Assembly: GCA_963842915.1 (NCBI GenBank)
Contig: CAWJII010000004.1
Span: 264,158-328,157 of the forward strand
DNA length: 64,000 bases
Direction of reading: 5' to 3'
Origin: an uncultured delta proteobacterium
GTDB lineage: Bacteria > Myxococcota_A > Polyangia > Polyangiales > Houyiibacteriaceae
Shown in pieces: positions 24,511-39,002 of the stretch; the first letter of the stretch is position 1; every line of letters begins with the position of its first letter. Both the position numbers and the translations under genes were made by a program. The notes below the pieces were generated by a model. It did no database searches and was not told where the DNA came from. It saw nothing but the letters and a program-made list of their open reading frames with translations.

Positions 24511-24586
24511 GGCAGGCCAGGAGGGATTCGAACCCACAACCCGCGGATTTGGAATCCGCTGCTCTACCAATTGGAGCTACTGGCCT
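24511..24586 (-). tRNA. tRNA-Trp (anticodon CCA)
   Basis: Cloverleaf read by eye: acceptor AGGCCAG/CTGGCCT, anticodon arm GCGGA-TTCCAAA-TCCGC, T-loop TTCGAAT. Confidence 0.92.
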
Positions 24587-24844
24587 AGGAGATAGTGTGG
24601 GGGCGGTGGGGCGGGACAAACTGCCGGGCCCCCAGGCCCGTCCGGCCTCTATGTGCCCTTTGTCTTCCCTAGACCAACACCCTCTTTTTCTTATTTCGTT
24701 TCTTTGTGATCCGTTCGCCGGTTGCATTTGGGACAGAACTTTTTCAGGGTCAGTCTCTCCCGTTGGCCGGGCTTTCTCAACTTTGTCGTTTGGTAGTTGC
24801 GCGCCCCGCACTCGTCGCACGCGAGCGCAACCTTAACCCGTCTA

Positions 24845-26035
<1,191 letters not shown>

Positions 26036-26096
26036 CGTACGTTCCCTACTTCGTCGTTCTTCTGAGTGAGCTTGCTTGAACTCGCAAAATCCGCAG

Positions 26097-26168
26097 AGCC
26101 CAGGATGAGACTTGAACTCACGACCTCCCCCTTACCAAGGGGGTGCTCTACCACTGAGCTACCTGGGC
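26097..26168 (-). tRNA. tRNA-Thr (anticodon GGU)
   Basis: GCCCAGG acceptor, anticodon arm CCCCC-TTGGTAA-GGGGG, T-loop TTCAAGT. Confidence 0.9.
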
Positions 26169-26185
26169 ATAGTCTGATTTGCGGG

Positions 26186-26258
26186 AGCGGGCGACCGGGC
26201 TCGAACCGGCGACATTCAGTTTGGAAAACTGAGGCTCTACCAACTGAGCTACACCCGC
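26186..26258 (-). tRNA. tRNA-Gly (anticodon UCC)
   Basis: GCGGGTG acceptor, anticodon arm TCAGT-TTTCCAA-ACTGA, T-loop TTCGAGC. Confidence 0.9.
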
Positions 26259-26279
26259 GTAATCTGTGTGTTCATCTCC

Positions 26280-26365
26280 TGGTGGAGGGTGGTGGGTTCG
26301 AACCACCGTAGGCATAAGCCGGCAGATTTACAGTCTGCTCCCTTTGACCGCTCGGGCAACCCTCC
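26280..26365 (-). tRNA. tRNA-Tyr (anticodon GUA), long variable arm, CCA encoded
   Basis: GGAGGGT acceptor, anticodon arm GCAGA-CTGTAAA-TCTGC, variable arm, T-loop TTCGAAC, 3' ACCA. Confidence 0.9.
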
Positions 26366-26389
26366 ATGGTCATTCGTCTTTTCGCGTAG

Positions 26390-26462
26390 AGCTGGCGATG
26401 AGACTTGAACTCATAACCGCCGGTTTACAAAACCGGTGCTCTACCAATTGAGCTACGCCAGC
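26390..26462 (-). tRNA. tRNA-Thr (anticodon UGU)
   Basis: GCTGGCG acceptor, anticodon arm CCGGT-TTTGTAA-ACCGG, T-loop TTCAAGT. Confidence 0.9.
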
Positions 26463-36733: not shown

Positions 36734-37222
36734 ATGGTCCCGACGATCGAAGTTCGCGAGGCGGATCAATCCGACCGCGACGTCCTGATGGGCTTTCATC
36801 GCAGTCTCTACAAAGGCCACCGCGACGAGGTCGTCGAGGAAGACGATCGCCCACTCATCGAGTATCGGGACTACGAACGCATTCTAAGTGAGGACCTCGA
36901 GTCGCTATTGCGAGATCGAAACGGTCACGTCCTGGTAGCAGAATCCCAAGGCGCGGCCGTGGGCTACATCACCGGCCGAGTCACCGTAGAACCGAGACGC
37001 GTCTTGCCAACAAAGGGCGTGGTCGAAGATTGGTACGTCGTCCCGGACGCGCGGTGCTTCGGCGTGGGCGCCCTGCTGCTAGCCAAGCTCGAAGCGCGCT
37101 TCGCAGCAGCGGGCTGCGAGGTGATCGAGTCGGCAACCTGGTCGGGAAACGAAGGTGCAAGGCGGGCGCACGATGCCCTCGGATTCCGGGAGATCAGGGT
37201 AATGTACCGAAAGCGGATTTAA
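36734..37222 (+). CDS. GNAT family N-acetyltransferase
   Basis: Acetyl-CoA motif-like region VVPDARCFGVGALLLAKLEARF plus C-terminal ALGFREI. Confidence 0.85.
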   Translation: MVPTIEVREADQSDRDVLMGFHRSLYKGHRDEVVEEDDRPLIEYRDYERILSEDLESLLRDRNGHVLVAESQGAAVGYITGRVTVEPRRVLPTKGVVEDWYVVPDARCFGVGALLLAKLEARFAAAGCEVIESATWSGNEGARRAHDALGFREIRVMYRKRI

Positions 37223-37236
37223 CGCGTTCACGGCCG

Positions 37237-37860
37237 CTGGCACTGGCACTGGCACTGGCCCCTCATGACATGCGCGGCAGCGCGAGCCCAAAGGGCGAAG
37301 CCCGGCGCGAAGCGCCGGCAAGGCGGAGCAAAGCGACCGCCGCGCCAGGGAGGATTACGGGTGGGGGTGGGCGGGCGGTGTAATCAAGCCATACCAGGCA
37401 ACCCACCCAGCACCCCACCCCCAAACACCCGCGGCAGCACAAGCCTGACACTGACACTGGCACGCCCTCCCAAGACAGCAGGCGGCAGCGCGAGCCCGAA
37501 GGGCGAAGCCCGGCGCGAAGCGCCGGCAAGGCGGAGCAAAGCGACCGCCGCGCCAGGGAGGATTACGGGTGGGGGTGGGCGGGCGGTGTAATTAAACCAT
37601 ACCAGCCAACCCACCCAAGACCCGCACCCCAAACACCCGCGGCAGCACAAGCCTGACACTGACACTGGCACGCCCTCCCAAGACAGCAGGCGGCAGCGCG
37701 AGCCCAAAGGGCGAAGCCCGGCGCGAAGCGCCGGCAAGGCGGAGCAAAGCGACCGCCGCGCCAGGGAGGATTACGGGTGGGGGTGGGCGGGCGGTGTAAT
37801 TAAACCATACCAGCCAACCCACCCAAGACCCGCACCCCAAACACCCGCGGCAGCACAAGC
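37237..37860. repeat. Three tandem copies of a 208-bp GC-rich structured repeat
   Basis: Units at about 37237-37444, 37445-37652 and 37653-37860. Copies 2 and 3 differ at a single position on my reading (37498 G vs 37706 A). Copy 1 diverges at its 5' end, a (GCACTG)n microsatellite, and near its 3' end. The array lies in a convergent intergenic region. Confidence 0.9.
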
Positions 37861-37958
37861 CAGAAGTCGCCACCCCTGCCCACCCTACTCCCGCACCTCA
37901 ATCGGCGCCGCGGTCGGCGATGGATCGCTACGCAACAGCTCCAGCGCGCTCCGCTCGT

Positions 37959-39002
37959 TCAGCAAGTGGGCGGCGAAGAACGCTGTGATGAAGGTGGCGT
38001 GTGGCCGTTTGCGGAGTCGACTGAGACGTAGTTGAAGGGCTCGCCGTTGGTTTGTCTGCTGTCGTCGCCGCATCCCGGTGCGAAGAAGTCGGTGAGGCCG
38101 GCGATGTTCGTGACCGACCAGTGGCCTGCGTCGACGACCTCCATTTTGTAGGCCGGGGTGTTCGCGTTCGTGAAGTTCTCTCGAATGAATAGGTTACCGG
38201 GTTCGAGGATCGAATTGTCCTCGGTGGCTACGAGTAGACCCAACGGCACCTCTATCGATTCGATCGATACCTCTCCGTAGAGGATGTTTTCCATGGGCGC
38301 GGCGAGGCCGATGACCGCGGCGATTCGTGAGTCGTTCTGGGCCACTCTTCCAGCGGTGACCGAGCCGATGCTGTGGCCCAGCATCCCTAGCTGAGACGCG
38401 TTCGCGGTGACTCCGTCGGGCAGGACCTCCCCCGCTAGGACCCGGTCGAGCAGGAAGCGGATGTCGGCTTCCCGGACATCCACGAGGGCATTGTTGAGAG
38501 GGGATTGGGTGCCATCGAGGCGATCGAAGAGGGTGTCCCCGATGTGGTCCGGGGCCACGACGATGAACCCATGAGACGCAAGGCGTTCCACGACCGCATG
38601 TGCGGACCATCGGGTGCAGGTGTAGCAATGCGAGTAGAGGACCAGTGGGTATCCACCTGCGGCCGCGTCTGCATTTCGGCTAGAGGCAGTGGTCTTCGCG
38701 ACGCAGGCCCCGGGCGCAGCGTCCAGCAAGGCCGACAGCTCGGATCGTCGGTCCGTCTCGGTTTCGAAGTCGATGACAGCCGATGGACTGTCCGACGACG
38801 CGATCGGATACCACACTTCGATGGGGAGTGTTCGCCCCCGCGCGCTGTCGGTGAGGCTCGTCGTCAGCACCCCAACCGAGGCGGGCCCGGCCCTGGTGTA
38901 GTCGATGGGGCCGGTGCTAGCGCTGCCTTCATCGCCACTGCACGAAGCCAGCAAGACCGCTAGCGCCACAAAGGCATTCCCAAACGCCAACGTTTTCCGC
39001 AT
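37959..39002 (-). CDS. Alpha/beta-hydrolase lipoprotein (PAF-acetylhydrolase / lipase-like); 3' end probably frameshifted
   Basis: Lipobox LLASCSG; YPLVLYSHCY, nucleophile elbow GHSIGS, His in DAGHWS. The C-terminal 15-20 codons have poor third-position GC, whereas overlapping frame 37885-38073 looks coding. Confidence 0.7.
   Translation of the reverse strand: MRKTLAFGNAFVALAVLLASCSGDEGSASTGPIDYTRAGPASVGVLTTSLTDSARGRTLPIEVWYPIASSDSPSAVIDFETETDRRSELSALLDAAPGACVAKTTASSRNADAAAGGYPLVLYSHCYTCTRWSAHAVVERLASHGFIVVAPDHIGDTLFDRLDGTQSPLNNALVDVREADIRFLLDRVLAGEVLPDGVTANASQLGMLGHSIGSVTAGRVAQNDSRIAAVIGLAAPMENILYGEVSIESIEVPLGLLVATEDNSILEPGNLFIRENFTNANTPAYKMEVVDAGHWSVTNIAGLTDFFAPGCGDDSRQTNGEPFNYVSVDSANGHTPPSSQRSSPPTC

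Follow-up and report, generated by a model that had tools for sequence, protein, structure and literature searches.

Tandem units in an uncultured myxobacterium are copies of a dispersed, structured intergenic repeat, probably a module of a non-autonomous mosaic element

We analyzed a stretch of 64,000 nucleotides (the window) from an uncultured member of the Polyangiales, positions 264,158 to 328,157 of contig CAWJII010000004.1 in assembly GCA_963842915.1, and focused on an array of three 208-bp tandem units at window positions 37237 to 37860. Our results suggest that this array comprises three local copies of B, the label we use for the dispersed repeat family to which the window unit belongs, and that B is a module of a lineage-specific, non-autonomous mosaic interspersed repeat of uncultured marine-sediment Polyangiales, a reading to which we give a probability of about 60%. 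Copies of B are dispersed, prefer intergenic and above all convergent gaps, have no linked gene, turn over between species, and combine a fold that is selected on one single strand with an invariant G-tract. The literature on myxobacterial repetitive extragenic palindromic (REP), miniature transposable element with inverted repeats (MITE), or G-quadruplex (G4) repeat families yielded no earlier description of B, which is apparently an undescribed intergenic repeat family of uncultured marine-sediment myxobacteria.

The dispersal of B is evident from several searches. An exact 20-mer of the unit, CAGGGAGGATTACGGGTGGG, was used to search a one-genome-per-species collection and matched more than 112 stretches from 17 GTDB species among the matches listed, all of them uncultured Myxococcota/Polyangiales metagenome-assembled genomes (MAGs). 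These matches fall on both strands, many per contig, with up to a dozen loci on one 415-kb contig, and a pattern limited to the 5′ domain of the unit matched more than 120 coastal and marine sediment metagenome contigs among the matches listed. Profile searches across about 1.6 Mb of sampled DNA recovered 303 B copies. Copy number in related genomes, a point raised by an earlier reading of the window sequence alone (hereafter the original prediction), can therefore be given as 303 sampled copies, with at least 17 species among the matches listed. The host MAGs are mostly congeneric, with a median ortholog identity of 89% and a few at about 70 to 78%; the window organism has the same GC content and shares one clear ortholog with them, at 79% identity. 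Between non-orthologous sites the B core is about 88 to 91% identical, as compared with the 89% median for orthologous proteins, and the nearest copy of a given B comes from the same genome in 40 of 126 cases, against 16 expected.

The hundreds of homologous copies elsewhere refute the view that the array is a recent duplication unique to its locus, a case that the original prediction had raised, or a gene for a repeat protein. What stands of that view is that units 2 and 3, just 1 nt apart, are recent local duplicates. Open frames do extend across the array on both strands, but the array open reading frames (ORFs; 108, 117, 93, and 88 aa) have no Pfam match, and none was called as a gene by a codon-usage caller that reproduces the L001 reference annotation (sampled loci are cited by such numbers where needed). 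No ORF is conserved, since 208 is no multiple of 3 and indels of 1 to 2 nt separate homologous copies; on these grounds the original judgment that the repeat holds no convincing ORF is borne out. A candidate mini-ORF (GTG GGG GTG GGC GGG CGG TGT AAT TAA) after a Shine-Dalgarno-like GGGAGGA was also rejected, as neither its frame nor its stop is conserved across variants: the frame shifts between GGGC and GGGGC versions, and a stop is missing from several variants.

The genomic setting of B is equally distinctive. With genes called by a codon log-odds caller validated on L001, 301 of the 303 copies are intergenic. Gaps that carry B are convergent in 75 cases, tandem in 54, and divergent in 20, whereas B-free gaps of these loci number 163, 708, and 189, respectively, which amounts to an enrichment of B in convergent gaps (odds ratio 5.6, p = 9e-20). 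Within tandem gaps there is no orientation bias, with 37 copies sense and 28 antisense (p = 0.32), and the finding that 71% of copies with both neighbors known lie downstream of a co-oriented gene reflects mainly the preference for convergent gaps. B accumulates where insertion is least harmful, at gene 3′ ends and in convergent gaps most of all. When about 1,380 neighbor proteins were clustered all against all, no linked protein gene emerged, and no family reached more than 12 of the roughly 230 loci. The top neighbor clusters by Pfam are housekeeping families, for example rpoD, rpsA, the rplS region, an ABC transporter, ECH, SDR, and an aminotransferase, and they recur because of synteny between related MAGs. 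We saw no reverse transcriptase or transposase adjoining any sampled B copy, and inverted B pairs enclose rplS, an RNA methyltransferase, and DUF4345 but no transposase. At several loci B directly adjoins core genes (L047:4364-6610, rpsA; L042:5950-7284, rpoD; L084:4032-4397, rplS), and insertion on the 3′ sides of rpsA, rpoD, and rplS is evidently tolerated.

Within the window, Tandem Repeats Finder (TRF) reports a single array at 37237-37861 with a period of 208, 3.0 copies, 95% matches, and a score of 1118. Direct comparison shows that units 2 and 3 have their sole mismatch at offset 53 (37498 G versus 37706 A), whereas units 1 and 2 differ by 25 mismatches, most of them within the initial 37 nt or in the C-rich arm and distal loop. 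The opening sequence is (CTGGCA)3-4 in unit 1 and CTGACACTGACACTGGCA in the other two. The array begins 14 nt after the stop of the GNAT gene and ends 98 nt from the end of the convergent hydrolase gene. Here the original prediction was accurate throughout: its three abutting 208-bp copies, the single difference between copies 2 and 3, the microsatellite at the start of copy 1, and the placement between a GNAT (+) and a hydrolase (−) gene all agree with the TRF, pairwise, and Pfam results. Neither sequence comparison nor nhmmer detected further B copies in the 64-kb window. The features of the array and its flanks are as follows.

37237-37444 (+): unit 1, (CTGGCA)n microsatellite, leader, and B core; the most diverged unit (nhmmer 37274-37379, E = 2e-25)
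37445-37652 (+): unit 2 (TRF, pairwise; nhmmer 37481-37587, E = 8e-26)
37653-37860 (+): unit 3, 1 nt from unit 2 (TRF, pairwise; nhmmer 37689-37795)
37237-37254 (+): 5′ hexamer microsatellite (CTGGCA)3; counterpart CTGACACTGACACTGGCA at 37445-37462 and 37653-37670
37482-37566 (+): 5′ structured domain of unit 2, covariation-supported; counterparts 37274-37358 and 37690-37774
37567-37586 (+): G-tract GGGTGGGGGTGGGCGGGCGG, a canonical short-loop G-quadruplex motif; counterparts 37359-37378 and 37775-37794
37587-37638 (+): AT-richer apical segment TGTAATTAAACCATACCAGCCAA and C-rich arm CCCACCCAAGACCCGCACCCCAAACACCC, variable or optional; counterparts 37379-37430 and 37795-37846
37639-37653 (+): 3′ terminal motif GCGGCAGC, then ACAAGCC; counterparts 37431-37445 and 37847-37861
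36734-37222 (+): GNAT acetyltransferase, upstream flank, outside the element (Pfam PF00583, E = 7.6e-15)
37959-39002 (−): alpha/beta-hydrolase (chlorophyllase/PETase-like), downstream flank, convergent with GNAT, outside the element (Pfam PF07224, E = 7.8e-12)

Across the family, B has a constant order of parts. Its 5′ half runs from a variable leader through a starting GCGGCAGC, the hairpins P2 (GCCC-GAA-GGGC) and P3 (GGCGC-loop-GCGCC, with a GAA loop in the window unit), and the stems P4/P5 to a linker, AGGGAGGATTAC, that is invariant across B copies. In window unit 2, P4/P5 read GGC..GGCGG..GC-AAA-GC..CCGCC..GCC, and family-wide they close a GC-GNA-GC mini-hairpin. The 3′ half comprises the G-tract, GGGTGGGGGTGGGCGGG(G)CGG, the AT-richer segment, the C-rich arm, and a second GCGGCAGC, which is followed by a degenerate repetition of roughly the initial 35 nt of the unit. 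The conserved unit thus measures at least 110 nt and holds four or five helices.

We built two alignments, A1 of 65 full copies and A2 of 126 distinct 5′ domains, and evaluated an explicit structure of the 5′ domain on the 126 distinct copies by a cell-based covariation test, with slid partners and 500 shuffles as controls. In the 5′ domain 96.0% of cells are paired, compared with 29 to 45% with slid partners, and 124 cells carry double changes against 31 ± 5 in the shuffles, none of which (0/500) reaches 124. The covarying pairs, which span four stems, include 66:80 (AU 62, GC 41, CG 16, UA 2), 58:87 (GC 88, CG 28), 63:82 (GC 104, CG 17), and 27:31 (CG 107, GC 10), and an inserted C47 occurs together with G51. 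From these alignments, a predicted three-way-junction domain of about 70 nt is strongly supported by covariation, and the several nested hairpins per unit noted in the original prediction gain support from the same 124 cells. The excess of G·U over A·C wobbles in the fold (19 versus 4) indicates that the + strand, as in the window, is the folded one. The invariant positions comprise the G-tract and the nucleotides of junctions and linker, the loops are variable, and optional hairpins are inserted at fixed junction positions in metagenome copies. There are also structural subfamilies. In one (L109:4388-4555; L133, L154, L158, L175, L195, L221), the linker GGGAGGATTA gives way to a roughly 30-nt insert that forms a hairpin of its own, CACGCTG-CTCAC-TCGC-GTGAG-AGTGATACCAGGA; a second has an extra hairpin and additional G-runs within the G arm, GGGGGTAGGCGATAGTGTGGGGGCGGTGGGGCGGGAC...; and in some copies (L175, L193, L205, L098:4401-4540, L022:901-1040) an 18-nt segment, GGGCGGTGTAACYAAACC, is present as 2 to 3 tandem copies, such that tandem duplication is found in B at three scales, 6 nt, 18 nt, and 160 to 208 nt.

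The second conserved feature of B is the G-tract, which is almost invariant at 1.95 bits per column and is present in every window unit. A canonical G4 motif, with four or more runs of at least three G and short loops, is kept in 130 of 143 copies (91%), in 129 of the 130 with loops of 1 to 2 nt. The surrounding 722 kb of DNA holds 45 background G4 motifs on both strands, and B contributes most G4 motifs of the sampled regions. The C-rich arm and apical segment are only loosely conserved, at 1.2 to 1.3 bits per column (C arm, 1.18), and the C arm is absent or diverged in 56 of 143 copies by one count and in 87 of 206 by another. The long inverted repeat of G-rich and C-rich arms described in the original prediction does exist as sequence and can pair, with compatibility of 92% in one register and 83% in the other, but there are zero compensatory changes and both registers equal the shuffles, and we rejected the long hairpin as a selected helix. 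An invariant G arm, a dispensable C arm, and no covariation between them indicate that what is conserved in the G-tract is the sequence itself, plausibly a G4 or protein site, rather than one strand of a helix.

A fold and a tract of this kind raise the question of whether B works as an RNA. As the main rival to the mosaic-repeat reading, we considered B as a multicopy functional structured RNA whose three-way junction and G-tract, possibly an RNA G-quadruplex, bind a protein or RNA, with expression by read-through from upstream genes and a tandem array raising the dose. Covariation in four stems, the invariance of junction, linker, and G-tract set against variable loops, optional hairpins at fixed junction positions, and the excess of G·U over A·C all fit such an RNA, as does the location of 71% of copies downstream of a co-oriented gene, although the latter arises mainly through the convergent preference. 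We nevertheless hold it to be a tentative alternative, clearly less probable than a mosaic repeat. No sigma-70-like promoter or intrinsic terminator, and no U-tract, was seen at the array, and no promoter- or terminator-like signal is conserved upstream across the B family. The orientation in tandem gaps is unbiased (37:28), and 20 B-bearing gaps are divergent, where read-through could not transcribe B. A linked protein gene is likewise absent in about 230 loci, and B has no Rfam family.

The HEARO RNA was first known as a multicopy, mobile-looking structured RNA and was later recognized as the omega-RNA of IscB. By analogy with HEARO before IscB was understood, B could be a new class of multicopy structured RNA or transcribed DNA element, with a three-way junction, an obligatory G-quadruplex, and an unlinked protein partner. 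We regard such a class as unlikely. Such an RNA or element could serve as a scaffold or guide, act as a decoy, or signal processing or termination, with the microsatellites and modules bearing terminal inverted repeats (TIRs) as vehicles of spreading. Like B, HEARO and omega-RNAs are multicopy, highly structured, and distributed like mobile elements, and were found before their function, but they adjoin IscB or TnpB in most loci, whereas B lacks a linked gene and an Rfam match.

It is also conceivable, if quite doubtful, that B serves its host as a block of G-quadruplex and hairpins that stops or insulates transcription, stabilizes mRNA 3′ ends, or binds nucleoid proteins, as proposed for some bacterial interspersed mosaic elements (BIMEs). 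The strong overrepresentation of B in convergent gaps and at 3′ ends, the G4 motif in 91% of copies, with most G4 motifs regionally coming from B, and the copies beside rpoD, rpsA, and rplS would suit this role. However, presence, absence, and orientation of B differ among species at orthologous gaps, 163 of 238 convergent gaps do without it, there is no U-tract for intrinsic termination, and an equal enrichment in convergent gaps is expected of any tolerated selfish insertion (PMC3049150).

B is often only one part of a larger mosaic. Many copies follow a separate repeat, module A, of about 150 to 250 bp with perfect TIRs of 22 to 45 nt, TACCGGGGCGCGGAAAAAAGCGCGAC...GTCGCGCCTTTTTTCCGCGCCCCGGTA, and two alternative internal hairpin segments. 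Module A often begins 0 to 15 nt from a stop codon and is usually followed by conserved linker modules and then by B. It is found at L022:400-760, L047:3890-4140, L074:4870-5070, and about 39 other sites in related loci, with none in the window. Module A looks like a MITE; it matches no Rfam family, and no parent insertion sequence (IS) was found in the sampled loci. The only long TIR pair, of 2.1 kb in L111, was considered as an autonomous IS and rejected, as it is made up of two distinct composites that enclose a tRNA gene and a zinc-ribbon gene but no transposase. No target-site duplication was present at the compared occupied sites; the pair GTACC...GGTA does not qualify because it reads as part of the TIR. 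The window units have the 5′ microsatellite but no TIRs, whereas elsewhere B is often enclosed by composite TIRs of 22 to 45 nt or by inverted hexamer microsatellites.

These microsatellites follow a rule: on the 5′ side (CTGRCR)n has the same orientation in 15:1 cases, and on the 3′ side it is inverted in 12:3, so that 27 of 31 runs comply. Some 3′ microsatellites, for example in L039, are in phase with the terminal GGCAGC of the element, and they seem to have grown by slippage from B's own terminal hexamer. Long (CTGRCR)n/(YGYCAG)n runs, of up to about 25 units, occur at L043:2385-2520, L074:6440-6580 (reverse complement), L039:4300-4400, and L005:3153-3290.

Turnover of these mosaics between species is direct to observe. 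At one orthologous gap beside a tRNA gene (L047, L095, L085), three species carry three different composites at one site; two of these hold B in opposite orientations, and in the third module A has shrunk to its TIR tips. At another orthologous gap, L084 is empty, with 5 nt between stop codons, and L109 and L074 carry 300 to 550 nt of element. Composites of B and module A lie repeatedly beside tRNA genes in related MAGs (the L047/L095/L085 gap; L111:1370-1450).

B elements occur singly in 109 cases, as pairs in 21, and as triplets in 2, and the arrays are head-to-tail. In arrays with a period of 159 to 160 nt, abutting units share the GCGGCAGC 8-mer; the window period of 208 corresponds to the B unit plus tail, microsatellite, and leader. 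Adjacent units diverge by 0 to 2% in some arrays (window units 2/3, L093, L026, L037) and by 13 to 20% in others (L076, L014, L105, L119), which indicates that some arrays are recent local duplications and others are old or juxtaposed. An independent assembly, L002 (ENA ERZ25039603), has the identical three-unit layout with one additional SNP, so the array is genuine and no assembly artefact of the window. Among assemblies that are about 99% identical in the flanks, the number of units is 3 in the window and L002, about 2.2 in L001, and 1 in L004 and L006, and these two one-unit contigs are hybrids of the 5′ part of unit 1 and the 3′ part of unit 3. In L001 (GCA_942491125.1; 10660-10710), the first unit is extended by an insertion of 43 nt that includes 11 consecutive G in the hairpin loop, and this insertion is either an allele or an assembly artefact.

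The head-to-tail arrays bear on whether B could move as single-stranded DNA (ssDNA). In an arrangement like that of REP elements and their REP-associated tyrosine transposases (RAYTs), or of IS200/IS605 and palindrome-associated transposable elements (PATEs), the ssDNA fold of B would be nicked and joined near GCGGCAGC by an unlinked HUH (Y1) transposase; with the same 8-mer at start and end, insertion 3′ of GCGGCAGC would recreate the target and generate head-to-tail arrays. The strand-specific fold is in keeping with this mode, and so are several C-GNA-G mini-hairpins (GCCC-GAA-GGGC, GGCGC-GAA-GCGCC, GC-GAA/AAA/GCA-GC); triloops of the d(GCGAAGC) type are exceptionally stable in ssDNA. Further in its favor, GCGGCAGC stands at both ends and is common to abutting units, the divergence of some adjacent units equals that of random pairs, as for an independent insertion beside an existing copy, and B is extragenic and convergent-enriched like REPs. 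Yet a motif search found no HUH/Y1-like protein among about 1,470 proteins of the sampled loci and the window, about 1.6 Mb in all; no RAYT was seen in the same set, a gene for which the original prediction had proposed a search elsewhere in the genome. The inverted B pairs, which bracket rplS, an RNA methyltransferase, and DUF4345, never bracket a transposase, and the structure to be recognized would by far exceed any REP or IS200/IS605 end in size and complexity. Conserved modules, not random target DNA, make up the leaders 5′ of GCGGCAGC, and the orientation of B alternates within tens of kb on the 415-kb contig, so a replication-strand bias is not evident. On balance we judge this route improbable.

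Copying through RNA fares still worse. B would then be an element like a short interspersed nuclear element (SINE) or retron, copied by an unlinked reverse transcriptase, with hexamer tails from template slippage, a reading that was already disfavoured and that we consider very improbable. The 3′ microsatellites in phase with the terminal GGCAGC, as in L039, and the complex RNA-like fold would accord with it, and myxobacteria are rich in reverse transcriptases. Among partial copies, however, 87 are 3′-truncated or diverged and only 14 are 5′-truncated, the reverse of the pattern of target-primed reverse transcription, and this prevalence of 3′ truncation argues against retro-mobilization of the type of SINEs and long interspersed nuclear elements (LINEs). 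Moreover, no reverse transcriptase gene adjoins any sampled copy, microsatellites are found on the 5′ side too, inverted, and Rfam gives no retron or group II intron hit.

For the mosaic-repeat reading, we propose that the fold and G-tract would form the recognition module of an unlinked trans-acting enzyme, which would act on the single-stranded + strand, either as ssDNA or as a transcript, and so copy or move B. Selection for propagation, possibly together with some use at the host level, could keep the fold and G-tract constant. Units would be gained and lost by slipped-strand mispairing or unequal recombination at the repeated junctions, formed by the GCGGCAGC 8-mer and the adjoining hexamer microsatellite, and such events in the window may have set units 2 and 3 beside an older unit 1. 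Several observations weigh against this proposal. No mobilizing enzyme, target-site duplication, or autonomous parent was found in the sampled loci, the window copies lack the TIRs that surround many others, and the weak clustering of copies by genome means that recent bursts are not obvious. The hybrid nature of the one-unit contigs suggests that the copy-number polymorphism could partly be short-read collapse, and the combination of an invariant junction and G-tract, variable loops, and fixed-position hairpins is more typical of a functional structured RNA.

Among known repeats, B seems closest to the streptococcal BOX element in organization and distribution, with the Neisseria intergenic mosaic elements (NIMEs) and BIMEs next. 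BOX is a non-coding modular mosaic of the form boxA-boxB(n)-boxC, with the central module repeated zero to several times in tandem, inverted repeats in the outer modules, and tight predicted folding, is over-represented between convergent genes, and has spurious open frames on both strands (PMC3049150). B is similarly a central module in 1 to 3 tandem units, with outer modules (module A) that have inverted repeats, convergent enrichment, no coding capacity, a fold, and spurious frames on both strands. The likeness is of organization only: BOX belongs to another phylum, no sequence relationship is expected, and boxB measures 45 nt as opposed to about 160 to 208 nt for B. Unlike BOX, B has a covariation-supported three-way junction and a G4-type tract, and it also stands alone without TIR modules, as in the window.

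Of the three suggestions in the original prediction, a REP/BIME-like element is the closest in genomic behavior. Like REPs and BIMEs, B is dispersed, high-copy, extragenic, GC-rich, and folded as a single strand, and it lies at gene 3′ ends and in convergent gaps, in mosaics, with no gene inside. It does not share their defining details, however: a REP is a single imperfect palindrome of 20 to 40 bp with a GTAG/CGTC tag, whereas B ends in GCGGCAGC and has neither feature, no RAYT was seen in the sampled DNA, and REP orientation alternates in BIMEs, whereas B arrays are head-to-tail; conserved linkers exist in B too, so the resemblance to BIMEs is one of mosaic organization only. The NIMEs, in which RS units are bounded by dRS3, resemble B in having units of 50 to 150 bp with one bounding motif (in B, GCGGCAGC) strung downstream of genes, and NIMEs and Correia elements also coexist with a TIR-bearing MITE-like family, here module A. 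In B, by contrast, a direct 8-mer takes the place of the 20-bp inverted repeat as boundary, a link to phage integrases is not known, and the unit is one conserved structured sequence instead of diverse RS units.

The window B has no TIRs or target-site duplication and on these grounds is probably no MITE. Tandem units in or beside non-autonomous elements are described as MITE-borne minisatellites (PMC4596501). With these and with variable number tandem repeats (VNTRs) such as mycobacterial interspersed repetitive units (MIRUs), B shares tandem intergenic units whose number apparently varies between strains; it differs in that the unit itself is dispersed and structured, and the polymorphism at the locus may in part be assembly collapse.

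Other known classes were considered and rejected. The array is not a CRISPR array, as the original prediction had also concluded: the 208-nt units abut without unique spacers, and the CRISPR-DR match is at chance level (E = 4.8, 15.9 against a 42-bit gathering threshold). Nor was any described element recognized, then or now, as Rfam gives nothing at the gathering threshold at the window locus, with miRNA models as the best of a search at E ≤ 10 (20 bits versus 105), and zero matches in 18 composite loci; across the whole window it detects five tRNAs, all outside the array. A retron non-coding RNA, omega-RNA, or bridge RNA was set aside, with no recurrent reverse transcriptase, IscB/TnpB, or IS110 neighbor in the sampled loci, and B was not matched in phage and plasmid collections (blastn 'distant') or in IMG/VR viral contigs (exact scan). 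By inspection, a sigma-54 promoter in the TGGCAC microsatellite has a GG-to-GC spacing that is one off and no TTGC −12 element, and a hammerhead-like CUGA core in the microsatellite lacks the CUGANGA...GAAA arrangement, in line with the Rfam null. A CsrA sponge was rejected with one AGGGAGGA site per unit, which is replaced in the insert-bearing subfamily, and a riboswitch or cis-regulatory leader with the window copy in a convergent gap and the downstream gene opposite-oriented in 87 of 121 family cases.

A few cultured pathogens have well-studied small interspersed repeats, but such repeats are almost unknown in uncultured bacteria with large, GC-rich genomes, such as marine Myxococcota. B is unusual among them in that its core is a covariation-supported multi-helix junction instead of a simple palindrome, in its essentially invariant short-loop G-quadruplex motif, which accounts for most G4 motifs of the sampled regions, and in its inverted hexamer microsatellites on both sides, seemingly grown from the hexamer at its own end. 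As selfish DNA or as a working RNA alike, B allows the origin of structured repeats, their spread in the absence of a linked enzyme, and their local amplification to be studied in a defined, testable case; if it is an RNA, it would represent a new bacterial RNA class. The family can also be used as a lineage marker.

An identical GNAT protein is encoded on 14 public contigs of essentially one species, with DNA identity of about 99 to 99.9%, and many of these contigs terminate within the repeat, so that B explains why assemblies of these organisms break at such loci. The five tRNA genes of the window are clustered at 24513-26462 (−), with no B or module A beside them. In the hydrolase gene, a 7-nt indel, GTGTGGC, at the 3′ coding end (window 37995-38005) separates the window, and in variant form L004 and L006, from L001 (11010-11020) and L002, and because of this indel the hydrolase C-termini and lengths are called differently, at 347, 311, and 355 aa.

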